Source of the DNA: an uncultured Candidatus Saccharibacteria bacterium
GTDB taxonomy: Bacteria; Patescibacteriota; Minisyncoccia; Phycocordibacterales; UBA918
Direction of reading: 5' to 3'
DNA: 64,000 bases
Assembly (NCBI GenBank): GCA_964350645.1
Contig: CAYGJY010000002.1
Location: 97,538 to 161,537, forward strand
The position numbers and the translations under genes are program-made. This document shows, one piece after another, positions 9,324 through 58,707 of this stretch (the first letter of the stretch is position 1; each line of letters opens with the position of its first letter). The notes under the pieces were generated by a model. It saw only the letters and a program-made list of their open reading frames with translations, ran no database searches and was not told the DNA's origin.

Positions 9324-10418
9324 TTATTTATTCATTGGCATCACAAGATAGCGAAGTGTATGGTCATCAACCCCTTCCATCACCATCGGTTTACCAATAC
9401 CTGCAAAGTGTAAAACTAGACTATCACTAGCGATATGTGGCAATGCCTCAGCGACATATCGTTGATTAAAATTAAGTGTTAAATCATCACCCTCAGTTGT
9501 AGCAGTAATGGAGTTGGTAGTAGTTCCAACTTCCCCACTTGTAGCATTAATAGTGACTGATTTTTCTGTCACGTGCATTCCAACTTGGAAAAACTTATTT
9601 AAAAAGATATTAGTTTTTTTCAACGCGTGTACTAAATCGTTTTTAACTAACGTCGAATGTGTAACATATTCCTTAGGAATTATTTGTACATAATCAGGAA
9701 ACGAGCCGGTTGTAAGTCGTGAAGTAACATAGACCCCATCATCAAATTCTAATGAAAATTGATTTTCATTTACTCTCATTACTGGATCAGTATTTTTTAA
9801 ATCACAAATTCGTGATAACTCAATAGCGTTCTTTTGAGGAATTAAAATTGATTCATCAAAGGTAAGGTTTTTTTGAGGGACAGTTTTTTCCATTAAACGA
9901 AATGAGTCTGTTGCCACAAAAGTAAGAGAATGTTCTTTTTTTTGAAAAATATATACACTCCCTAATTCTGGTTTAATCGATGATTGAGAAGCAGCAAATG
10001 CTGCAGTTTTAATTCCTAAAGAAAAAAGTGAATTTGAAACAGTTTGACCAGTCCCAGTTATTTTTGGAATGGTTGGAAACTCATCATGAGGAATACTTTT
10101 TATTTGTGTCTCAGAACCATCAACCTCAACAATCAATGACCCTTCCTCAGCCCGGAGAGTAATAGTTTGTTGTTTAATTAAATTAATTGTCTGTGACAAT
10201 GTTTGGACTGGTACCGCAATCACTCCTTCTTCTTCAATTGTTGCCGTGAGTGCAACTTCAATCCCAAGTTCTAAATTAGTTGCTTTTAATAAAACCTTAC
10301 CCTGTTCAACCACTAATACACCACATTGTAAAACTGGTAGTGTCACATGTTTAGTGCTAATTCTAGAAATTAATTCTAGTTTTGTTTGTAACTCAGTTGT
10401 TTCTAAAGTGATGTGCAT
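9324..10418 (-). CDS. dnaN: DNA polymerase III beta sliding clamp
   Basis: 364 aa, three-domain clamp, located immediately downstream of dnaA. Confidence 0.9.
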   Translation of the reverse strand: MHITLETTELQTKLELISRISTKHVTLPVLQCGVLVVEQGKVLLKATNLELGIEVALTATIEEEGVIAVPVQTLSQTINLIKQQTITLRAEEGSLIVEVDGSETQIKSIPHDEFPTIPKITGTGQTVSNSLFSLGIKTAAFAASQSSIKPELGSVYIFQKKEHSLTFVATDSFRLMEKTVPQKNLTFDESILIPQKNAIELSRICDLKNTDPVMRVNENQFSLEFDDGVYVTSRLTTGSFPDYVQIIPKEYVTHSTLVKNDLVHALKKTNIFLNKFFQVGMHVTEKSVTINATSGEVGTTTNSITATTEGDDLTLNFNQRYVAEALPHIASDSLVLHFAGIGKPMVMEGVDDHTLRYLVMPMNK

Positions 10419-10419
10419 A

Positions 10420-10760
10420 AGTCAGTAGTTCTTTTTTATATTTTAATTATAGCTCTTCTTATTAGCTCTGTGGAACTGTGTAAATCTTAAATCCATGGCT
10501 TAGTACGGGATCTTTTTCGACCTAAAAAATTTAATAACCCGGGGATAGTACAATTTTTATCAGTAATAACGTGGGTACAACTATAACAAATTACTTAAAC
10601 AGTTGATAACTCAAGTATTTGTATGATCTTTTCCACAGACTTTGTATAAAAAATAGCTTTTTATACACAAATAATTCTCACTCATACACTTGTAATTAGT
10701 GCTTTTCCCCAACAAAATAAGTACAAAAAAAATCTAGCATCGCTAGATTTTTTTTGTACT
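10420..10760. promoter_or_regulatory. Candidate oriC segment (dnaA-dnaN intergenic): AT-rich unwinding region plus DnaA-box-like 9-mers
   Basis: AT-rich run 10425..10460. ttttccaca (10629..10637) matches TTATCCACA at 8/9. A weaker tgtggaact is at 10469..10477. The perfect 18 bp inverted repeat gtacaaaaaaaatctagc/gctagattttttttgtac sits at the dnaA 3' end. Confidence 0.35.
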
Positions 10761-12157
10761 TATTTCAAGAGCATTCGTACTTGTGTTACTTCTTCTTCTA
10801 GTTCTGGACTACTCTTAAGTTCATTTTTAATTTTTTCACAAGAGTGGATGACGGTTGTGTGGTCTCGCCCCCCTAGTTTTTGACCAATTGCAGGGTATGA
10901 AACTTGGAAATCCTCTCGCAAGATATACATGATGAGTTGCCGGGGTTTCACGACTTCTTTACGGCGGGTTTTCTCATAAATTGATGATGGGTCTATATCA
11001 AAGTAGCGGGCTACTTTATCTACCACATCTGAAACAGCAAGAGTTTTGCGTGGTCGCGTGCTGTTTTTAATAATTAATTTTACTTCTTCAATTGACAGCG
11101 TGCGTCCTAATAGTTGGGACTGACACATAATGGTATTTAACGCTCCTTCAAGTTCACGTATGTTACCTTCAATCGTATTAGCTAGATGGTCGATGACATC
11201 TTCAGTTAAGGTGATGCTATTTTGAGCGGCTTTAGCACGTAAGATAGCGGCTCGTGATTCCATATCTGGCGCTGGGATATCAACGATCATACCTTGAGCA
11301 AAACGTGATTGGAGTCGTTCCTCGAGACCGGCCAACAGTGCCGGGTGCACGTCACTTGAAAATACAATTTGTTTGTTGTTGTCGTGTAAGGCATTGAACA
11401 GATGAAATAGCTCCTCCTGAGTCTTTTCTTTCTTGGCTAAGAATTGTACATCGTCCATGATAAGAACATCATATTGACGGTATTTGTCTTTAAAATTATT
11501 AGCGGTACCGTTTTGAAGCGAATTAAAATAATCTACCGTGAAGCGCTCACTAGTCACATAGAATACTTTTTTCCCAGTTCGTTTTAACTGATTGCCGACA
11601 GCTTGGATTAAGTGGGTTTTACCATGTCCAGTCTTTCCGTAAATAAATAATGGGTTATACGAGATACCTGGTTTTTCACTCACAGTCTTTGAAGCAGCGT
11701 GAGCTAAGGCATTGAATGGTCCGATCACAAAGTTTTCAAAGGTATATTTTGGATTGAGGTTGTCACTTTTATTAATATAGTACTCCTCAAGTGGTAAAGC
11801 AGCGTTGACAGTTTGTGGTCGGGTATCTTGACGTTTGTCGTTTCGTTGGACTACAGCATATTCGATACTTCGCACGTGGGGTGTGAGGTCGCGGAGTACT
11901 TTTAAGATCATTGATTGGAATTTATCGTTTAACCAATCGCGCACAAAAACACTTGGTACACCAAGAGTAATAGTGCCATCCTCTAGAGATGCAATATGGG
12001 TGTCTTTGAACCAGGTTTTGAAATTGGCAGGAGTAATTGACAGTTCGATGGTAACCAAGGCGTCATCCCATAACTTTTTCACATCGACATGTTCTGTCTG
12101 AACGATGCTGTTTGTGGTAAGAGATGTTTGTGACAATGGATTCATAGAAGTAATCAA
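10760..12157 (-). CDS. dnaA: Chromosomal replication initiator DnaA
   Basis: 465 aa; AAA+ Walker A GKTGHGKTHL, C-terminal DnaA-box-binding domain. Confidence 0.95.
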   Translation of the reverse strand: MITSMNPLSQTSLTTNSIVQTEHVDVKKLWDDALVTIELSITPANFKTWFKDTHIASLEDGTITLGVPSVFVRDWLNDKFQSMILKVLRDLTPHVRSIEYAVVQRNDKRQDTRPQTVNAALPLEEYYINKSDNLNPKYTFENFVIGPFNALAHAASKTVSEKPGISYNPLFIYGKTGHGKTHLIQAVGNQLKRTGKKVFYVTSERFTVDYFNSLQNGTANNFKDKYRQYDVLIMDDVQFLAKKEKTQEELFHLFNALHDNNKQIVFSSDVHPALLAGLEERLQSRFAQGMIVDIPAPDMESRAAILRAKAAQNSITLTEDVIDHLANTIEGNIRELEGALNTIMCQSQLLGRTLSIEEVKLIIKNSTRPRKTLAVSDVVDKVARYFDIDPSSIYEKTRRKEVVKPRQLIMYILREDFQVSYPAIGQKLGGRDHTTVIHSCEKIKNELKSSPELEEEVTQVRMLLK

Positions 12158-12587: not shown

Positions 12588-12911
12588 ATGCTTAAAAAAA
12601 ATCAACGATTAACCACTGAAGCGTTTGACCAGTTTTTCAAAACTGGACGACGTTACCATACTCCCCACCTCCAACTTATCTATACTCCCCACCCAGTCTT
12701 TCATGGCTCAGTGGTCGTCGGTAAGAAGGTGTGTAAACGAGCCGTTGACCGCAACCGTTGGCGCCGACGTGCGTATAATGCTCTCTATCAACTAACAAAA
12801 CAAACCAATCAATCTGGTGTCTATATTGTTGTCTTGAAACCAACTGCCATTACCCTCTCATTTGCAGCGCTACGGCAAGAAATAGCTACAGTGGTTGGCC
12901 GGACGCAGTAA
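12588..12911 (+). CDS. rnpA: RNase P protein component
   Basis: 107 aa basic protein in the conserved rpmH-rnpA-yidC arrangement. Confidence 0.85.
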   Translation: MLKKNQRLTTEAFDQFFKTGRRYHTPHLQLIYTPHPVFHGSVVVGKKVCKRAVDRNRWRRRAYNALYQLTKQTNQSGVYIVVLKPTAITLSFAALRQEIATVVGRTQ

Positions 12912-24552: not shown

Positions 24553-25461
24553 TTACCAGAGATTAATGAACCCAAAAACTTGGCGGGCTAGGTCATTTTC
24601 TTTATAGGAAATACCCTCCCCTTCGAGGTTGGTGTAGAGATTAACGAGGGCATAGTAGAGACCCTTGGTGTCATCTTGATAGCGTTTCAGTCGTGTCATG
24701 GTGTAAAGCGGATCAGTAAATGATGCTTCCATAGCTGCGATGTCGATCGCTAGCGCATTGTAAGCATTAAGGAGGTAGACGTGATCGTCAGCTAGTGAGC
24801 GAGGAACCTCTAAGGTCAGCATATCGCCAAGCATCCCTTCGTATGATTTTTTAATAGGAGCAAGCTTGGCTAAGGTTTCAGGGTTGTTGCGTTCGACTGC
24901 CTGTTTTGTAATCAGCGCCTCATTCTCAGTTTCAACTGGGACAGCGTGTACCAAAGCAATTTCAGCGACTTTATTGCCGTAAGCAAAGAGTGCTTCGCGG
25001 TTGGTGTCATCAATGACGGCTATGTCCCTAAACGTATATAGGTCGTCAACAGCCGCAGCTTGGATTTGCTTCTCAAAATTATCAACAATCTGACCTTGTT
25101 GTTCATCAAACACACCATACTGCTTAGCTTCGACGGTATCTTTGAAAAGAGCGATTGCCATTTGTCCCGTCAGTGTGTCTGGTGGAGTGTAGGTACCGGC
25201 TGTCGTTGTGCCTGAATCAAGAGAAATTGTTTGCACCGTACGCAGTGTTTCTCGCCAATCAGCAATGCCATTGTTATTTGCGTCAGCGATGGCGATATAA
25301 CTCCGCTCTGGGGCAGCCGCCACTATTACAGCAGCTGATGCCGGAGTACTTTTTTCTGTGACGACACCATAAAGTGAGGCTGAGATCAGACCAGCTCCAA
25401 TAACAAATGCACCTAAAATCTTGGCGTTCATAAACGGTAGTCTCAGTATAACAGTCGCCAC
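24553..25461 (-). CDS. Membrane-anchored extracytoplasmic protein (hypothetical; positional VirB8-like candidate)
   Basis: 302 aa (or start at MNAKILGAF, 25431); one N-terminal TM then a roughly 270 aa soluble domain; first gene of the cluster. Confidence 0.4.
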   Translation of the reverse strand: MATVILRLPFMNAKILGAFVIGAGLISASLYGVVTEKSTPASAAVIVAAAPERSYIAIADANNNGIADWRETLRTVQTISLDSGTTTAGTYTPPDTLTGQMAIALFKDTVEAKQYGVFDEQQGQIVDNFEKQIQAAAVDDLYTFRDIAVIDDTNREALFAYGNKVAEIALVHAVPVETENEALITKQAVERNNPETLAKLAPIKKSYEGMLGDMLTLEVPRSLADDHVYLLNAYNALAIDIAAMEASFTDPLYTMTRLKRYQDDTKGLYYALVNLYTNLEGEGISYKENDLARQVFGFINLW

Positions 25462-48974: not shown

Positions 48975-49781
48975 ATGAAAATCTACTCGTGGAACGTGAA
49001 TGGGATTCGGGCGGTGCAGAAGAAGGGTTTGTTTGAGCCGTTTATAGCTAAACATCAACCTGATGTGCTCTGTATTCAGGAAACCAAGGCGCAGCCAGAG
49101 CAGGTGGAGGAAGAAATGGCTGAATTATTCCCCGAATATGAGCAACATTGGCACTCAGCAGAGAAAAAAGGCTACTCTAGTACGGCGATTTTCACTAAAA
49201 TAGCCCCAGAAGACGTCATGGTTGGTCTACCAGAAGACGTGAAACAGGCCTATAAACTCGAGGATTCTTATGGGGATACCACGAAAGAAGGTCGGGTAAT
49301 GGTGGCTGAATACGAGCATTTTTATATTTCTACTGTCTATACACCTAATGCCAAAGATGATTTGAGTCGTATACCCATGCGTCAAGCCTGGGATCCGGCG
49401 TACTTGGAATACATGAAACAGCTCCAGAGTAAGAAACCGGTCATCTTCTGCGGCGACTTCAACGTGGCACACACGGAACTGGACCTTGCGAGACCAAAAG
49501 AGAACCGTGGGAAGAAGGGATTTACCGATGAAGAGCGAGCGGGCTTCGATGCCATGCTTGCAGCTGGGTTTGTGGACACACTTCGAGTGAAACATCCAGA
49601 CACACCGGATCTCTATACGTGGTGGAGCCACTGGGGTGGTGCGCGTGAGAGAAATGTTGGTTGGCGGATCGACTATGTGATGGTCAGCGAATCACTCCAG
49701 AGTGTTCTTACGGATGCAAAAATTCACCCAGAAGTACTAGGTAGTGATCACTGCCCTGTTTCGGTAGATTTGGCAATTTAA
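48975..49781 (+). CDS. xth: Exodeoxyribonuclease III (AP endonuclease)
   Basis: 268 aa; MKIYSWNVNGIRA..., QETK, ...DHCPV. Confidence 0.9.
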   Translation: MKIYSWNVNGIRAVQKKGLFEPFIAKHQPDVLCIQETKAQPEQVEEEMAELFPEYEQHWHSAEKKGYSSTAIFTKIAPEDVMVGLPEDVKQAYKLEDSYGDTTKEGRVMVAEYEHFYISTVYTPNAKDDLSRIPMRQAWDPAYLEYMKQLQSKKPVIFCGDFNVAHTELDLARPKENRGKKGFTDEERAGFDAMLAAGFVDTLRVKHPDTPDLYTWWSHWGGARERNVGWRIDYVMVSESLQSVLTDAKIHPEVLGSDHCPVSVDLAI

Positions 49782-49815
49782 ACAATCACACGAAAGCTAT
49801 TTATGTCAAGACATT

Positions 49816-49840
49816 AAAACGGCTCTACAGAGCCGTTTTA
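49816..49840. terminator. Terminator after xth
   Basis: aaaacggctct-ac-agagccgtttt. Confidence 0.6.
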
Positions 49841-49843
49841 ATG

Positions 49844-49861
49844 TGTCTTTTATAAAGGACA
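49844..49861. repeat. Copy 1 of 18 bp palindromic motif TGTCyTTTATAAAGGACA
   Basis: tgtcttttataaaggaca. Confidence 0.5.
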
Positions 49862-49895
49862 ATAACAAAAAGTTTTCCCCAGTTATACACACGTC

Positions 49896-49923
49896 TGTCC
49901 TTTACACTACCCTATAAAGGACA
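49896..49923. promoter_or_regulatory. Split copy of the palindromic motif (tgtccttta-N10-tataaaggaca) overlapping a consensus-like sigma70 promoter
   Basis: -35 TTTACA (49901..49906), 17 bp spacer, -10 TACTAT (49924..49929). The palindrome halves bracket the -35 and spacer, an operator-like arrangement. Confidence 0.45.
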
Positions 49924-49936
49924 TACTATATTGGTA

Positions 49937-50385
49937 GGCCCAGCAAGGGCGAGCACAGTACTCCAGAGTTTTGCCAAGAAGAACGTTCGAAGCAAAACTC
50001 TGGAGGAATGTCTTAAAGAGCACATTCAAAATAATAGAGGACGAAAGTCCTCACAGAGATAATACCTCCATCTCTAAAAGTTCATAACATTCCCACCTAA
50101 TTGACTCGACTTACCTATGAGTCGCGAAGAGGACCGAAGTGTAGAGCCTTCGATTCTCCTCACGACTCATAGATAAGAAGTTAAGTTAAAACTTATCTAA
50201 ACGAGTCACAAAAGAGTAAAAATAGCGGAATCCTCGTCAACAACCTTCCACAGTTGAAGACAAGAAAAGGAGACCACTGAGGCAATTGCCTCTCTACTCT
50301 ATATCAAAGACCTGTCGGGGTCTCGGCAGTTAATCACCTTCACCACTGATTGACTTCCAAGATCCCCGCGGGTCTTTTTTTATGG
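49937..50385 (+). ncRNA. Candidate novel structured ncRNA (about 450 nt) running from the promoter to an intrinsic terminator
   Basis: No ORF of 60 aa or more on the plus strand. Consecutive perfect hairpins: ccagagtttt/aaaactctgg (49955..49995), gaggac-GAAA-gtcctc, gagat/atctc, and ctatgagtcg...cgactcatag (50115..50171) with nested cgaag/cttcg. Ends at tccccgcgggtcttttttt (50362..50385). Confidence 0.35.
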
Positions 50386-50590
50386 AATTAAGAAGCAGCA
50401 AAGCTGCGACTATATTTCCATTATGCAAACACCCAGTAGTTTCGACCCTCATAGGGAGAAAATACGCGGTGTCTTGCCTAGTAGTTCAAACTTATCTAAA
50501 CTCTCTATACGCAGTGATCAAGCCATCAAAAGGCGAATACGCACTAGTGTCTTGCCAGGTAATCCGTATTTTTTATATTCAAGTTACATA

Positions 50591-50640
50591 CCCGCCTAAA
50601 AGGGCAGAAATACTTTGTATTTCTGCCCTTTTAGCGTCCA
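50591..50640. terminator. Bidirectional terminator at the cca 3' end
   Basis: aaaagggcagaaata-ctttg-tatttctgcccttttag, perfect 15 bp stem. Confidence 0.7.
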
Positions 50641-50649
50641 CATGATCGT

Positions 50650-52128
50650 TTAGCCTACCTTATGTTCCCATTCGATCGCTTTGATAGCGGCCGCTTCTTC
50701 TTCGGCTTGTTTAGCACGGCCTTTTTGTGCCAAAGCTTCAAGCTCTGAAATATCCATAGCTAGCAAGGCTTTTGTACGGTTATCCAGGTATTCTTCAGTG
50801 TTTTTCCCTGGGTCTTCCAACACCTCTTCCAACAGTGCATGCAGTAGATATCCTAGCTTTTTCCCCGGCTTTTCCCCATACTTATCCATAATTCTATCCC
50901 CATTGGTCTTTAAGAGCTTCACGGAGATTGGGTCACGCAGCGCCTGATCAACCATCGCCTTGTATTTGCGGAAGCGAAAGGGTTGTTCTTTTGGTCTCCC
51001 GGTCCCAATCCGGTCACAGACGCGTAAATTGAGTAAATCTTCAATGTTTTCTTCGCCAATGCGAACAATGGTACGCCGGACCGCTGAGAGGGTGATTTCG
51101 TCTGGGTCTGAAAAAAACATGTGCCAGCGTACCAGTTTTTCGACTTTTTCGCTCATTTCACGCGGCATTTTCAGGCGTTTCATGATTTTCCGGGCCATTT
51201 TGGCACCCACTACCTCATGACCAAAGAAGGTATAGCGTTTGTTTTTGCCGCCTTCCCTACGAGTGGCTGGTTTGCCGATGTCGTGCAACAAGGCGGCATA
51301 GCGCATCTCAAGTGAGAAATCTTTGTCAGCCGCTGCTTGGCAAGTACGTAACAAGTGTTCGAATACATCATACGCGTGAATGCCGCCTTGTTCGCAGCCT
51401 TTGCTTGGGAGAATTTCGGGCAGGACATATTCAAGCATCTCCAGGCGATCCAAGAAGGCAATACCTTGCATTGGGGCGGCTGAAGCCATAATCTTAGAGA
51501 ACTCCTCAGCGATTCGTTCGATCGATATATGGCCCAAACGTTCACTATTTTTAACAATAGAACTCATGGTTTCGGCATCAATGGCAAAGTTGAGCTCAGT
51601 AGCTAGCCTCACAGCACGCATCATGCGGAGGGCGTCTTCGCCAAAGCGTTCATCTGGTTCGCCGACAGTTTTAAGGCGTTTTTTCTTAATATCCTCTTGT
51701 CCAGTAAATAAATCAACTACTTTCTCATCTTTTAAACGAAAGGCGATGGCATTGACGGTAAAATCACGACGCTTGAGGTCTTCTTCTAATGAAACACCAA
51801 ACGAGACTGAATCTGGTCGGCGACTGTCTGAGTAGCCACTTTCGCTACGGTATGGAGTCACTTCCACCACTTTCAAACGTTCATCATCGGTTGCTTCGTT
51901 CACAACCCCGACAGTGCCATAGTCGTTATTGCAGAATGTTTCTTCTTCGGTCCATAGCGCTCGGATCTGTTCAGGGTGGGCGTTGGTGGTAAGGTCCCAG
52001 TCCTTCGGGGTTTTGCCTATTAAAAGATCGCGTACACAGCCACCCACTAAGTAGGCTTCAAAACCGGCTTTTTCTAAGGTGTCAGCTACCTGTTGAACTT
52101 CGACTGGAACGTCAGAGCGAGTAATCAT
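50650..52128 (-). CDS. cca: CCA-adding enzyme / tRNA nucleotidyltransferase with HD domain
   Basis: 492 aa; GGCVRDLLIGKTPKDWDLTT polymerase-beta head; HDIGK HD motif. Confidence 0.85.
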   Translation of the reverse strand: MITRSDVPVEVQQVADTLEKAGFEAYLVGGCVRDLLIGKTPKDWDLTTNAHPEQIRALWTEEETFCNNDYGTVGVVNEATDDERLKVVEVTPYRSESGYSDSRRPDSVSFGVSLEEDLKRRDFTVNAIAFRLKDEKVVDLFTGQEDIKKKRLKTVGEPDERFGEDALRMMRAVRLATELNFAIDAETMSSIVKNSERLGHISIERIAEEFSKIMASAAPMQGIAFLDRLEMLEYVLPEILPSKGCEQGGIHAYDVFEHLLRTCQAAADKDFSLEMRYAALLHDIGKPATRREGGKNKRYTFFGHEVVGAKMARKIMKRLKMPREMSEKVEKLVRWHMFFSDPDEITLSAVRRTIVRIGEENIEDLLNLRVCDRIGTGRPKEQPFRFRKYKAMVDQALRDPISVKLLKTNGDRIMDKYGEKPGKKLGYLLHALLEEVLEDPGKNTEEYLDNRTKALLAMDISELEALAQKGRAKQAEEEAAAIKAIEWEHKVG

Positions 52129-55039: not shown

Positions 55040-56760
55040 TCAACGACATTCGCACTAGTGAGCCGAAGATTTTAGTAGCCGGTAATCACGTCAAGATCAT
55101 TCAATCGATGCTGGATTTTGACTACGCTGCAGGGAAAGAATCACCGAGTGTGGTGGGGATTATTTCGGCCGGCCGTAAAACTCAAAAGTTTTTCTGGGGC
55201 GATGGTGAGATCTTGGTGCCGGTAGTGCCCGACGTTGAGGCAGCAAAAAAGGCTTCATTTGAGCCAGATTTCCTGCTTTGTATCACTTCGGCTTCGAGTA
55301 CACCACGGATGGTCGAGGCATTTTTTGCTGCGTTCCCAGCAGCTGTCGGCGCCCATCTCTTCGCTGAAGGGGTGGCCGAGCGCGATGCGCTTCAGTTGAT
55401 CGAAGCGTATGGCGAAGAGAAGCTTATTCTCGGTGCTTCGGGGGTTGGTCTTTGTGTACCAGGCAGCCTTAAACTAGGCGCTATTGGCGGTATTCTGGGT
55501 CCACGACTGGCTGAACTAGGTCGAACTCGTGGTCACACGGCGGTGATTTGCAGTTCTGGTGGTATGGTCAACGAACTTATGTACCAGGTCGTTGCTGCCG
55601 GCAGTGGGATTAGTTTTGCGGCTTGTTACGGAGGCGACCGTTTCCCTGTCACTTCCCCGCTACAGTGGCTTACACAAGCTCAAAACGACCCGGAGACCAA
55701 AGATATTGTCTACTTTGGGGAATTGGGTGGTGACGATGAGTATACGCTTCGAGACGCCATTAAGGCTGGCAATATCACTAAGCCAGTCTATGCCTATATT
55801 GCTGGCCGCTACGAAAGTCAGGATGAAACAATCCAGTTTGGCCATGCTAAAGCCCTCGCTAAAGCAGAATCAGAGACAGCGGCGGCTAAAATGGCTGCTT
55901 TGGCTGCTGTCGGAGTGAACGTCAGCGATACATTTAATGATTTTATGGCTACGTTCGCCTCGCTTTCACGTGAAACTAGCGTTGGCGAGTCAGTTCGGGA
56001 CTGGAATGAACGCCCGGCTCATCTACAGCCGACTGTCTATTCTGCCCCGGCGTATACTGGCGCCCATGCGGCCAGCTTTACCGAAGGTATTTTGGCTCGC
56101 ATTCTCGGTCGCAGCAGTGTTTCACGGGAAACCGCTGACTTTGCTGACTTGATCTTTGCGCAGTTGATCGACCATGGACCACATGTGTCTGGAGCGGTAA
56201 ATACTATGATTACTACTCGAGCTGGCCGTGACCTAAGCTCGGCCCTGGCTACGGGTGTCCTGACAGTTGGTGATCGCTTTGGTGGCGCTATCAATGGTGC
56301 CGCTCAGATTTGGCACGATGCTGTTTCACGTGGCATCACTGCCGATGAGCTGGTGGCAGACTACAGCCAGCAGCGCCAGTATATTTTAGGCATTGGACAC
56401 CGAAAATACTCAGTGTATAAGCCAGATCCGCGCGTACAAGCCTTGATTGAGCATGGTAAAAATGTTCTACGTGAAACACCTCACCTTGATTTTGCCCTGT
56501 CAGTGGAGACAATCACCGCTAAAAAGCGCGCTAACCTGATTTTAAATGTAGATGGTGTTATTTCAGCTCTATTTACGGACTATTTGATTGCCAAAGAAGA
56601 CTTTACTGCTGAAGACATTGCTGAACTTATCGATATTGAGTTTTATAATGCTCTGTTCCTCATTCCTCGTTCGGTGGGGTTTGTCGGAAATTATCTCGAT
56701 CAAAAACGCATTGACGAAGGATTGTTTCGTTTGGGCGACAAAGATAGCTATAATTTTTAG
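55036..56760 (+). CDS. aclA: ATP-citrate lyase alpha (large) subunit: CoA-binding/phospho-His domain plus citrate-synthase-like domain
   Basis: 574 aa; catalytic-His loop ETIQFGHAKALAKAESETAAAKMAAL (cf. ACLY [25 protein letters not shown]); C-terminal LGIGHRKYSVYKPDPRVQAL (cf. GFGHRVKSINNPDMRVQIL). ATGA overlap with aclB. Confidence 0.8.
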   Translation: MINDIRTSEPKILVAGNHVKIIQSMLDFDYAAGKESPSVVGIISAGRKTQKFFWGDGEILVPVVPDVEAAKKASFEPDFLLCITSASSTPRMVEAFFAAFPAAVGAHLFAEGVAERDALQLIEAYGEEKLILGASGVGLCVPGSLKLGAIGGILGPRLAELGRTRGHTAVICSSGGMVNELMYQVVAAGSGISFAACYGGDRFPVTSPLQWLTQAQNDPETKDIVYFGELGGDDEYTLRDAIKAGNITKPVYAYIAGRYESQDETIQFGHAKALAKAESETAAAKMAALAAVGVNVSDTFNDFMATFASLSRETSVGESVRDWNERPAHLQPTVYSAPAYTGAHAASFTEGILARILGRSSVSRETADFADLIFAQLIDHGPHVSGAVNTMITTRAGRDLSSALATGVLTVGDRFGGAINGAAQIWHDAVSRGITADELVADYSQQRQYILGIGHRKYSVYKPDPRVQALIEHGKNVLRETPHLDFALSVETITAKKRANLILNVDGVISALFTDYLIAKEDFTAEDIAELIDIEFYNALFLIPRSVGFVGNYLDQKRIDEGLFRLGDKDSYNF

Positions 56761-56779
56761 TTCGGTACTAGCAATACTG

Positions 56780-56823
56780 CCACGTGAAATGGCCGGAAGC
56801 TTTGCTTCCGGCCATTTCACGTG
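56780..56823. terminator. Long perfect hairpin between convergent aclA and def. Its arms are parS half-site-like (CACGTGAAAT/ATTTCACGTG).
   Basis: ccacgtgaaatggccggaagc-ttt-gcttccggccatttcacgtgg. Confidence 0.6.
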
Positions 56824-56831
56824 TAACTCCC

Positions 56832-57353
56832 CTATTTCCCCCGCACGTGCTTAAGGTAGTATTCACGACTTACTAAACTCTGTGGATCAGCTAAGTCAGT
56901 AAAAAGAATTCCATTGAGGTGATTAACTTCATGTTGGATTACTCGAGCGAGCAAACCAGTAGCAGACATTTCACGTGAAACGCCTTTTTGGTCTAAATAT
57001 TTCAAAGTAATAGCAATGGATCGCTCAACTTTTCCAAATAAGCCAGGAATTGAGCCACATCCTTCCCAGTCAAGCGTTGTTTCACGTGAAAAGTCGGTAA
57101 TTTCTGGATTTATATACACCCGAAGTTCGTCAGTTATTCCCTTGCGAAACTTAGTTTCACGAATTTCTGTGACAATAATCTGCTTCGATACATTAAGCTG
57201 GGGCGCAGACAGTCCGATCAACTCTTCTCCTCGCATCGTATCAACAAGATCAGTAATGTAAGACTGAATTTTATCGGAATCTTGATTTGAAACTTCCTTA
57301 GCTGTTTCACGTAGAACCGCTTCACCAATTAGAACGCTAGGTTTAATAGACAT
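56832..57353 (-). CDS. def: Peptide deformylase
   Basis: 173 aa; GLSAPQ, EGCGSIPG, QHEVNHLNG (HExxH). Confidence 0.85.
   Translation of the reverse strand: MSIKPSVLIGEAVLRETAKEVSNQDSDKIQSYITDLVDTMRGEELIGLSAPQLNVSKQIIVTEIRETKFRKGITDELRVYINPEITDFSRETTLDWEGCGSIPGLFGKVERSIAITLKYLDQKGVSREMSATGLLARVIQHEVNHLNGILFTDLADPQSLVSREYYLKHVRGK
56967..56982. promoter_or_regulatory. parS-like site (13/16 to TGTTTCACGTGAAACA), inside def
   Basis: cattTCACGTGAAACg. Confidence 0.6.
57078..57093. promoter_or_regulatory. parS-like site (14/16), inside def
   Basis: TGTTTCACGTGAAAag. Confidence 0.65.
57303..57318. promoter_or_regulatory. parS-like site (13/16), inside the def 5' region
   Basis: TGTTTCACGTagAACc. 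Confidence 0.55.
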
Positions 57354-57406
57354 ATTCGGAGTATAACAAACTTTCTATCTTGATGTTTCCCGTGTAACAT
57401 AAGGAT

Positions 57407-58081
57407 ATGCTGAGCTTGTTAGCGGTAGTAATCATATATACGTTTGTCTTTGGTGTTGATTATTTGCGCTACCGGTCCAACCCGCTGACCTACCAGTATG
57501 TTTCACGTAGAACATACCTACTGTTTTTAGTCGGTATTCTCCCGATCATATACCTATTTTATACTGATTTTGAATCTTTTTTTGAGCATATTTATACTGA
57601 AATAGCCTTAATATCGCTATTACTAGCAATGATGTTGTTATTTAGCTATCTACTCAGCCGTGAGAGACTGCTTGTGTGTCATACATCGTCACGTACAGAA
57701 CGATGCTTAACGGCAGGTTATGTCCTTACTAAAGGTAAAGAGATTATGTTTCAACAGTTTTGTTACGCTGGGGTAGCCTTTTCTTTGGTTACTCTACTCG
57801 GGAGTGGTTTTTGGACCTACGTAGGCTATATAGTAATACTACTTATCATGCACACTCCTGTTATTTTGAGCATGAATGTTTCGGCAGCTAGTCGCCTAAC
57901 ATTAGGGATTCTAGTAATGGCCGCCCCACTTTTCTATATATTTATAGAGGTCCAACACTTTTGGCCCTCTATGTATTTACACGCATTGCTGTACGTATTT
58001 CTGTGGTTAACCTTTGCCGACTGGGAAGGAAAAATCATTCATGTTTCACATGAAACTAATAAAGTGGATAAGTGGGGATAA
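57407..58081 (+). CDS. Polytopic membrane protein (hypothetical)
   Basis: 224 aa, about 6 TM helices; contains two parS-like sites in its coding sequence. Confidence 0.5.
   Translation: MLSLLAVVIIYTFVFGVDYLRYRSNPLTYQYVSRRTYLLFLVGILPIIYLFYTDFESFFEHIYTEIALISLLLAMMLLFSYLLSRERLLVCHTSSRTERCLTAGYVLTKGKEIMFQQFCYAGVAFSLVTLLGSGFWTYVGYIVILLIMHTPVILSMNVSAASRLTLGILVMAAPLFYIFIEVQHFWPSMYLHALLYVFLWLTFADWEGKIIHVSHETNKVDKWG
57499..57514. promoter_or_regulatory. parS-like site (14/16)
   Basis: TGTTTCACGTagAACA. Confidence 0.6.
58043..58058. promoter_or_regulatory. parS-like site (14/16)
   Basis: TGTTTCACaTGAAACt. Confidence 0.6.
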
Positions 58082-58191
58082 CTGCGGGGATAGGTGGATA
58101 AAGGACAGTACTTAACAATACGAGTATTATACAAATACGCTTTAAAATATAGGTTTTAGTTATTTAATTCAGTCTTTTTAACAAAAACATA

Positions 58192-58207
58192 CGTTTCACG
58201 TGAAACA
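58192..58207. promoter_or_regulatory. parS site (15/16), intergenic upstream of yraN
   Basis: cGTTTCACGTGAAACA. Confidence 0.7.
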
Positions 58208-58254
58208 TCTATAATCAAGCCAGAGTTGATAAAATATGGCTAATAATATAGCTT

Positions 58255-58670: not shown

Positions 58671-58707
58671 TGTCCTTTATAAAGGACTCTGTCTTTTATA
58701 TGAGACA
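58671..58707. repeat. Copy 3 of the TGTCCTTTATAAAGGAC palindrome plus an adjacent half-copy (tgtcttttata...gagacag)
   Basis: tgtcctttataaaggact ctgtcttttatatgagacag, directly after the yraN stop. Confidence 0.5.

Follow-up and report, generated by a model that had tools for sequence, protein, structure and literature searches.

A large structured RNA candidate encoded between xth and a cca-like gene in Paceibacteria-type Patescibacteria

We analyzed a stretch of 64,000 nucleotides (nt) of contig CAYGJY010000002.1 (assembly GCA_964350645.1), hereafter called the window, in which the region between the gene xth and a cca-like gene very probably encodes a new, independently transcribed structured RNA, as judged from sequence comparisons. 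The predicted RNA of approximately 446 nt lies on the plus strand and extends from A49936, its putative start 7 nt past a -10 box, to the U-tract of a terminator (49936..50381). The element is conserved among relatives, its helices covary, its strand and the order of the surrounding genes were assigned, and it did not match any known family. We class it as an undescribed family among the orphan, lineage-specific, large structured bacterial non-coding RNAs (ncRNAs). Since no gene follows on its strand, the RNA is not a riboswitch or a leader.

Conservation, structure and covariation of the predicted RNA

Homologues were taken from the best 80 genome loci anchored on the cca protein (labelled L001-L080), which originate from Kaiserbacteria-, Paceibacteria- or Parcubacteria-type metagenome-assembled genomes and show protein identities of 57-79%. 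By these relatives of its cca-like protein, the window is assigned to the Patescibacteria (Candidate Phyla Radiation, CPR). BLASTN of the interval against the 80 loci yielded matches to 49870-49950 in 55-63 of them, with about 25 reaching 50030, and the hairpin-rich body (50100-50385) was matched in one or two loci (closest relative, L001). Over 49850-50030 as a whole, 25-63 loci gave matches. The sequence-conserved part is composed of the first ~160 nt and the terminator hairpin. The 20-mer at the 5′-end was detected with at most four mismatches in 61/80 loci, and in the cca-anchored loci the conserved block always resided between cca and xth. Metagenome contigs were also scanned with the 20-mer, independently of cca, and at least 120 of them contained it exactly. 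Among the metagenome matches listed with enough sequence, a cca-like gene was located convergently downstream in 91 of 92, and xth lay at most 600 nt upstream of the start on the same strand in 104 of 108. Throughout the clade, the arrangement xth > RNA > < cca does not change. Because the flanking proteins of these contigs are only 55-80% identical to those of the window, the 5′-end of the RNA is far more constrained than its neighbours, and with the first 20 nt identical in at least 120 contigs, the selection acting on it is comparable to that on housekeeping RNAs. In distant cca loci (L062, L064, L072, L078 and others) the promoter module was kept and the RNA was diverged, but recognisable; in L064 it comprises GGCC-AUAAA-GGCU, a UUCG hairpin, GUUCUUUCCACA and AAGUAAUACCUCCAAAUUACUU. 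The RNA was not found in the viral contigs of IMG/VR.

The conserved region does not behave like a coding sequence, as no ATG or reading frame is conserved, the lengths of A-runs vary, and insertions and deletions are not multiples of three. Between the stop codons of xth (49781) and the cca-like gene (50650), open reading frames (ORFs) do not exceed 87 aa, and inside the RNA unit (450 nt after the promoter) they do not exceed 43 aa. Both the 850-bp gene-free region and the ~450 nt lacking a long ORF, claimed in the initial annotation of this DNA, were thereby confirmed. The 87-aa ORF had no Pfam match.

The 5′ domain contains four invariant or nearly invariant elements, the 20-mer AGGCCCAGARAGGGCGAGCA, CCCUUAAAGAG, the hairpin loop UACCUCCA and GUUCAUAAC..CCCACC. 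In the window the 20-mer reads AGGCCCAGCAAGGGCGAGCA (49936..49955) and holds helix P1 (GCCC 49938-41 / GGGC 49947-50, loop AGCAA), which among the homologues is a 4-bp hairpin GCCC/GGGC with the loop ARNRA and one compensatory change from C-G to U-A (L073). P2 (49951..50014) is a long hairpin of variable length with arms at 49956-74 and 49992-50010, in which GAG (49951-53) closes with CUU (50012-14); the inverted-repeat arms 49955-74/49992-50011 are 90% complementary. Its length in the homologues ranges from a 6-bp hairpin to ~25 bp, closed by GAG...CUU, with double changes in 7 to 21 sequences at most pairs and the G.U closing pair kept in 53/61. The following single strand J2/3 (50011..50035) has the sequence UCUUAAAGAGCACAUUCAAAAUAAU, for which the family consensus is CCCUUAAAGAG.(U/A)C.UUC. 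P3 (50055..50075), found by minimum free energy folding and inspection, pairs AGAGAU with AUCUCU and exposes the loop AAUACCUCC with the invariant UACCUCC(A). Double changes occurred at all five pairs of P3, and ACCUCC was present in 56/56 RNAs. The conserved single strand J3/4 (50076..50097) reads AAAAGUUCAUAACAUUCCCACC in the window and (C)GUUCAUAAC(A)..CCCACC in homologues. Between J2/3 and P3 the window carries a hairpin GAGGAC-GAAA-GUCCUC (50037..50052), an insertion shared only with L001 and lying outside the family core, which makes the covariance model misalign P3 of the window. A switch pairing of the P3 loop with the 3′ strand of P2 (UGGAGGUA) was rejected, since this complementarity exists in some lineages only, and mutual information within the 5′ domain did not disclose pseudoknots beyond the model.

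A covariance model (R1) was built from 12 sequences with a hand-checked structure. It gave exactly one strong match per source in 61 sources, that of the window covering 49936-50097 on the plus strand (87.4 bits, E ~1e-21). In the alignment of the 61 sequences 94.7% of the cells were paired, compared to 76.5% in column shuffles, of which none out of 500 was as high, and changes on both sides were detected at 27 of the 32 model pairs (273 cells). When the 3′ partners were slid by 1-3 columns, pairing fell to 30-54%. RNAalifold recovered P1 and P2 from an independent MAFFT alignment with 10-20 double changes per pair, and the column pairs with the highest mutual information all lay within the model. 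The covariation check on collected homologues, which had been recommended at the outset, thus revealed strong compensatory variation in the 5′ domain.

R1 is limited to the 5′ domain; for the middle and 3′ domains the evidence comes from MAFFT/RNAalifold and from inspection. The lineage-variable middle (50098..50305, plus strand) consists of a three-way junction GACUCG...CGAGUC (50103-50209), which includes a 68-nt hairpin (50110-50177) with 30-nt arms (50110-39/50148-77), and of a second domain closed by AGAGUA/UACUCU. Its sequence is conserved only in L001, and its helical architecture recurs within subgroups. The perfect hairpins reported initially are present where they had been placed (20-nt arms, GAAA, 30-nt arms), but the 57-nt and the GAAA hairpin turned out to be lineage-variable or window-specific and do not belong to the conserved core. 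At the 3′-end, a long three-tier terminator hairpin (50306..50381, plus strand) with arms at 50306-36/50347-77 and the C/A-rich apical loop CACCUUCACCAC is followed by U7 at 50375-81. An intrinsic terminator had been predicted to close the unit, which it does; the coordinates given for it (50362..50385) only covered the tip, as the true stem is 50306-36/50347-77 plus T7. Nearly all homologues possess a hairpin of -25 to -44 kcal/mol with a U-run 280-480 nt past the start (median ~365 nt; window, 446 nt). The recurring design is AAGGCCUGAGGG-AUCGG-...-CCGAU-CCCUCAGGCC-U6 with compensatory substitutions in every tier, the outer stem being 98.5% paired (G.U 40 vs A.C 3), and the apical loop is C/A-rich among relatives, often CCACCA or CACCAC. 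The J3/4 strand (50079-50106, AGUUCAUAACAUUCCCACCUAAUUGACU) recurs near the apex of the terminator hairpin (50328-50355, AGUUAAUCACCUUCACCACUGAUUGACU) as a 28-nt internal direct repeat, 75% identical, so that the same C-rich element is displayed twice; CCACC-type terminator loops exist in relatives as well. A long-range helix of AAAGAG or GAGC in J2/3 with (A/G)CUC before the terminator was discarded, as it did not covary and the motif closes a local 3′ domain (GAGCUUU/AAAGCUC). The full RNAs are rich in A and poor in G (A 34%, C 24%, G 19%).

The segment 49936-50385 folds at -165.5 kcal/mol, compared to -98.4 +/- 4.9 kcal/mol for dinucleotide shuffles (z = -13.7). The minus strand of the unit reached -191.5 kcal/mol (z = -11.5), and with similar z-scores on both strands the folding energy alone cannot assign the strand. 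The plus strand is favoured by the orientation of promoter and U-tract, by the G.U closing pair in 53/61 sequences, by the excess of G.U over A.C (5′ domain, 105:36; outer stem of the terminator, 40:3) and by the antisense matches of R1, which were confined to the P2 hairpin. A minus-strand RNA, suggested by its lower energy and by A.C mismatches of the 68-nt hairpin on the plus strand, was rejected for these reasons.

Searches for known families remained negative. With Rfam 15 at gathering thresholds, the whole window disclosed three tRNAs only; at E<=10 with permissive filters the interval gave only spurious miRNA-type hairpin matches, and a permissive scan of 13 homologous loci did not reveal any family recurring at the element. 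ARAGORN found no transfer-messenger RNA (tmRNA), neither in 49000-51000 nor in the whole window. RNase P RNA (RNaseP_bact_a/b) had no Rfam match, the P4 strands GGAAAGUCCGGGC / ACAGAA.CCGGCUUA are absent from the invariant segments, and instead of pairing with the 3′-end as in P1 of RNase P RNA, the 5′-end of the RNA forms a local hairpin. Neither tRNA-like ends nor a tag ORF, as in tmRNA, are present in the invariant segments. For signal recognition particle (SRP) RNA there was no Rfam match either; its domain IV motif is missing from the invariant segments, and the 3′ hairpin ends in a variable, C/A-rich apical loop instead of the GNRA loop of SRP domain IV. 6S RNA likewise lacked an Rfam match, and the multi-hairpin, multi-domain RNAs of 280-480 nt are not a rod of ~180 nt. 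The Rfam models of OLE, ROOL, GOLLD, HEARO and raiA did not match in the window or the 13 homologous loci. In the searchable literature we found no description of such an RNA nor of any lineage-specific ncRNA of CPR/Patescibacteria. The statement of the initial annotation that RNase P RNA, tmRNA and SRP RNA could not be matched agrees with the Rfam (E<=10) and ARAGORN results, and the Rfam check it advised left the element without a known family at either threshold. Its suggestion of an uncharacterised lineage-specific structured RNA is supported by these negative searches, by the occurrence in 61/80 loci and at least 120 contigs, and by covariation.

Predicted promoter and conserved upstream DNA

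The sigma70-like promoter predicted at 49901..49929 on the plus strand comprises the -35 TTTACA (49901-06), a 17-bp spacer and the -10 TACTAT (49924-29). Sites of the type TTTACA-17-TACTAT were seen three times with 2.3 expected, so that a single match is no better than chance. The homologues provided 151 distinct upstream sequences, of which ~96% retain TTTAC in the -35 region and 96-97% the -10 TAnnAT (T-12/A-11/T-7). The promoter call therefore carries weight because of its conservation and not because of the match itself, and in this way the site proposed initially was borne out. Seven nucleotides beyond the -10 region, the homologues exhibit the RNA start sequence AGGCCCAGARAGGGCGAGCA. 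At the sequence level, the 17-bp-spaced -35/-10 and the GC-rich hairpin with its U-tract are those of a sigma-70-type, intrinsically terminated unit.

Directly 5′ of the promoter lies highly conserved regulatory DNA (49844-49929). Each locus shares, in this order on the plus strand, the palindrome TGTCCTTTATAAAGGACA, two DnaA-box 9-mers, TGTCCTTTACA (which includes the -35), a second TAAAGGACA and the -10 TAnnAT. The palindrome of the window, TGTCTTTTATAAAGGACA (49844..49861, ~-92 to -75; family consensus TGTCCTTTATAAAGGACA), was recognised by alignment and a motif census and is in many relatives the tip of a longer perfect palindrome with covarying flanks. This 18-nt palindrome also occurred in six viral contigs of IMG/VR, which by a rough estimate is near chance level. 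Two tandem DnaA-box-like 9-mers, TTTTCCCCA (49873-81) and TTATACACA (49883-91), are situated 10 bp apart at -63/-53 on the plus strand (49873..49891). At these positions, at least one box with no more than one mismatch to TTATNCACA was found in 143/151 and both boxes in 79/151 distinct upstream sequences. Boxes of the type TTATNCACA thus occupy conserved, promoter-proximal positions, as in DnaA-controlled promoters. The variant TTATACACA is present too in the dnaA-dnaN spacer.

An operator-like inverted repeat TGTCCTTTA-N10-TAAAGGACA (49896..49923) overlaps the -35 region and occupies the spacer as far as the -10 region. Of ~60 loci, 59 retain TGTCCTTTA at position -40 and 38 retain TAAAGGACA at position -25, and in some lineages a second direct copy of TGTCCTTTA replaces the inverted TAAAGGACA. 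Because of these direct copies the repeat is a DNA site. An RNA hairpin TGTCCTTTA...TAAAGGACA was rejected on the same grounds and in view of the enrichment of the motif across the DNA of the clade: the 9-mer occurs 313 times in 610 kb (L001-L080), ~67-fold more often than expected (4.7), with 180 copies at the RNA promoter. Within the window it was found at 49853, 49896, 49915, 58099 and 58671. Copies away from the RNA promoter often lie directly 3′ of stop codons, as in the case of cca in L026, L037 and L050 and of the UPF0102 gene (58672-58689); such copies are often palindromic, and covariation of their flanks extends them to perfect palindromes as long as 38 bp. That the promoter lies among tandem DnaA boxes and repeats of TGTCCTTTA/TAAAGGACA, both conserved, suggests that transcription is regulated.

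Neighbouring genes and further features of the window

The gene xth (48975-49781, plus strand) encodes exodeoxyribonuclease III, as indicated by an NCBIfam equivalog match above the cutoff, and the convergent gene (52128-50650, minus strand) a CCA-tRNA-nucleotidyltransferase-like protein of 492 aa with an HD domain. A bidirectional terminator hairpin with perfect 16-nt arms lies 3′ of xth (49811..49844) and sets the upstream limit of the RNA unit, and the terminator of the cca-like gene is a perfect hairpin with 18-nt arms (50596..50634). The final ~265 nt of the region flagged initially (50386-50650) are made up of this terminator and a non-conserved spacer (50386..50595), lying outside the RNA. 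Short direct repeats exist in the spacer (AGTT.AAACTTATCTAAAC, which recurs at 50184, and GTGTCTTGCC, which is present twice), together with a promoter-like site (50552-79) and the 87-aa ORF mentioned above; it is probably neutral DNA.

About 38 kb left of the RNA, the segment 9324-13684 harbors dnaN (9324-10418), dnaA (10760-12157), rnpA (12588-12911) and yidC. The AT-rich dnaA-dnaN spacer (10419-10759) contains the DnaA-box variants TTTTCCACA and TTATACACA, and the minimum of the cumulative GC-skew lies nearby (~10 kb), which makes this region the probable oriC. An origin at the RNA locus, considered because of the DnaA boxes, was rejected, as dnaA/dnaN, rnpA, yidC and the GC-skew minimum are located near 10-13 kb and the locus has two boxes only. 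The occurrence of rnpA here implies a gene for RNase P RNA elsewhere in the genome.

Ten parS-like sites TGTTTCACGTGAAACA (up to three mismatches) were counted in 55962-58207, compared to 0.39 expected, the best one at 58192-58207. The cluster extends over def together with a citrate-synthase-like gene and one unknown gene, and is likely a ParB loading (centromere) region. Next to it, a second conserved non-coding module (58060-58215) joins four phased DnaA-box-like repeats (GTGGATAA GTGGGGATAA .. GGGGATAG GTGGATAAAGGACA) to TAAAGGACA, beyond which lie AT-rich DNA and a parS site, and thus uses the same building blocks as the RNA promoter. It is syntenic in L026, L029, L037, L039, L042, L043, L053 and others and could be a secondary DnaA-binding locus or a part of the origin machinery.

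Shine-Dalgarno (SD) sequences are nearly absent upstream of the ORFs of the window (GGAGG 0/48, GAGG 1/48). A -10-like box TAnnnT ending 3-12 nt before the ATG was present at 24/53 ORFs, compared to 15% at random positions, and these ATG-adjacent promoters of the window did not display a clear -35 consensus. Many genes are probably leaderless, and the genome seems to rely mostly on mRNAs of this kind.

Proposed role, alternatives and comparison with known systems

We propose that the element is a stand-alone gene, which would be transcribed rightwards from ~49936 to ~50381 by the predicted promoter. The RNA would be built of the conserved 5′ domain, one or two lineage-variable helical domains and the conserved three-tier terminator hairpin. 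Its output might be controlled by DnaA, bound to the phased boxes 5′ of the -35 region, and by another DNA-binding factor at TGTCCTTTA/TAAAGGACA over the core promoter. It may act in trans as a protein-binding or ribonucleoprotein (RNP) RNA of a housekeeping or sequestering type. The recognition surface would then consist of the invariant 5′ hairpin together with UACCUCCA, CCCACC and CACCAC, three C/A-rich elements that are exposed, and the variable helices would serve as a scaffold. That protein binding is the mode of action, as opposed to base-pairing with G-rich RNA targets, is a possibility to which we give somewhat less than an even chance; it is favoured by the 20-nt 5′-end, which is invariant and structured, by the presence of several single strands that do not vary, and by the long scaffold that does. 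More speculatively, the RNA could be the core of an unknown RNP, or a catalytic or housekeeping RNA, specific for Paceibacteria-type CPR, essential in their minimal, largely leaderless genomes and subject to DnaA (replication-status) control, whose invariant 5′ hairpin and elements resembling an anti-SD sequence or tRNA 3′-ends (UACCUCCA, CCCACC, CCACCA) engage translation or tRNA maturation. If true, this engagement could explain its fixed place beside the gene of the CCA-adding enzyme. The invariant ACCUCC loop is especially puzzling given the near-absence of SD sequences.

Several points weigh against the proposed structured RNA. The transcript and both of its ends are deduced from the sequence and not mapped, the DnaA boxes are likewise recognised by sequence alone, and the protein partner or target is wholly hypothetical. 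The main covariation alignment was fitted to the model, which is mitigated by the RNAalifold and mutual-information checks, and since the sequences are related members of a single clade, the shuffle test overstates significance. On the plus strand four of five mismatches in the 68-nt hairpin are A.C, equivalent to G.U on the minus strand, and in P2 (alignment columns 35/91) A is opposed to C in 24 and paired with U in 14 of 43 sequences. Furthermore, with rnpA in the window, the genome must also encode the cognate RNase P RNA at some position. Concerning the mismatches, the segment GAAGAG/CUCCUC with its A.C mismatch (50123-50130 / 50157-50164 in the window) recurs in L001, L073 and L075; recurrent A.C oppositions inside helices could reflect protonated A+.C pairs or serve in recognition.

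Among the alternatives, a trans-acting base-pairing regulator, whose C-rich loops (UACCUCCA, CCCACC, CACCAC) would pair with G-rich mRNA sites in the manner of RsaE/RoxS, which mask SD sequences, survives best and is nevertheless unlikely. UACCUCCA is invariant and in all RNAs located in the P3 loop, and two more C-rich elements reside in predicted unpaired regions, as would be expected for small RNAs (sRNAs) with anti-SD motifs; the RNA is also poor in G. However, target mRNAs with SD sequences were practically absent among 48 ORFs; in a host nearly devoid of them the obvious target class is missing, which also undermines an anti-SD mimic blocking ribosome-binding sites. Duplex prediction against 53 ORF starts did not yield a convincing target (one unverified outlier of -18.2 kcal/mol, ORF 24553-25431), and an invariant structured 20-nt 5′-end and a scaffold of 300-450 nt are atypical for seed-based sRNAs.

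A slightly smaller chance is given to a highly diverged universal RNA (RNase P RNA, tmRNA, 6S/Ms1-like RNA or SRP RNA) beyond the reach of current models. The length of 280-480 nt overlaps those of RNase P RNA and tmRNA, the level of conservation is nearer to housekeeping RNAs than to typical sRNAs, the conserved promoter is strong, and the window encodes RnpA, whereas rnpB, ssrA and ffs could not be recognised in its 64 kb. The last point means little, since the window represents ~10% of such a genome. Against this explanation stand the lack of any match to the RNase P, tmRNA, SRP and 6S models at E<=10 in the window and 13 homologues, the negative ARAGORN search, the absence of RNase P P4, tmRNA ends and tag ORF and SRP domain IV from the invariant segments, and a consensus of several hairpins that lacks pairing between the two ends of the RNA and does not form a 6S-like rod.

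It is very unlikely that the conserved entity is DNA and not RNA, i.e., a secondary DnaA-box cluster, or a regulatory or origin-like region, whose palindromes are prone to form cruciforms and whose downstream hairpins are incidental. The tandem DnaA boxes and TGTCCTTTA/TAAAGGACA, occurring inverted or direct, are indeed among the most conserved columns, a similar module of four DnaA-like boxes and TAAAGGACA lies beside the parS cluster (58.0-58.2 kb), and both strands fold equally well by z-score. Yet conservation continues for ~160 nt beyond the -10 region, the helices covary, accept G.U (105:36, 40:3) and vary in length while staying paired, a conserved U-tract terminator ends the unit in nearly all homologues, and dnaA/dnaN and the GC-skew minimum are ~38 kb away; the DNA module is better taken as promoter and operator of the RNA. 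Even less credible is a gene for a small protein or a minus-strand transcript, arising as a long 3′ untranslated region of the cca-like gene or by read-through from it. In favour of these, the -191.5 kcal/mol fold, the A.C mismatches of the 68-nt hairpin that become G.U on the minus strand, and ORFs of 30-87 aa could be cited. However, the perfect terminator at 50596-50634 separates cca from the element, promoter, U-tract, G.U bias and the antisense matches limited to P2 favour the plus strand, and the ORFs are not conserved, the 87-aa ORF is without a Pfam match and the indels are not multiples of three.

The CPR/Patescibacteria constitute a large share of bacterial diversity and have tiny genomes and very few characterised regulators. 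The structured RNA proposed here would offer a tractable new class for structural and biochemical work as well as a marker of the clade, and its DnaA-box/TAAAGGACA promoter would provide a first point of access to the control of transcription in these bacteria.

The RNA is similar to RNase P RNA and tmRNA in its size range and in being very highly conserved, preceded by a strong promoter and present once per genome region, but their defining motifs and folds are absent and their models and ARAGORN were negative. It resembles the sRNAs RsaE/RoxS of Firmicutes in its exposed C-rich motifs, with ACCUCC being identical to the anti-SD core, its low G content and its Rho-independent terminator, and differs in being three to five times longer, in lacking an Rfam match and in a host practically without SD targets. 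DnaA-regulated promoters and secondary DnaA-box clusters are known, such as the DnaA-box clusters of B. subtilis and datA/DARS of E. coli. Like these, the putative promoter exhibits tandem phased boxes in an origin-proximal intergenic position directly 5′ of a promoter, but here there are two predicted boxes only, the gene driven would be that of an ncRNA, and the boxes are combined with the second repeat TAAAGGACA. The RNA further resembles OLE, raiA motif RNA, ROOL, GOLLD and HEARO, which are also stand-alone genes of several hundred nucleotides with multi-domain folds supported by covariation, invariant single-strand or loop nucleotides, a restricted lineage and an orphan function. It does not match their Rfam models and is distinguished from them by its Paceibacteria/Kaiserbacteria-type host, its own DnaA-box promoter and its large lineage-variable middle.

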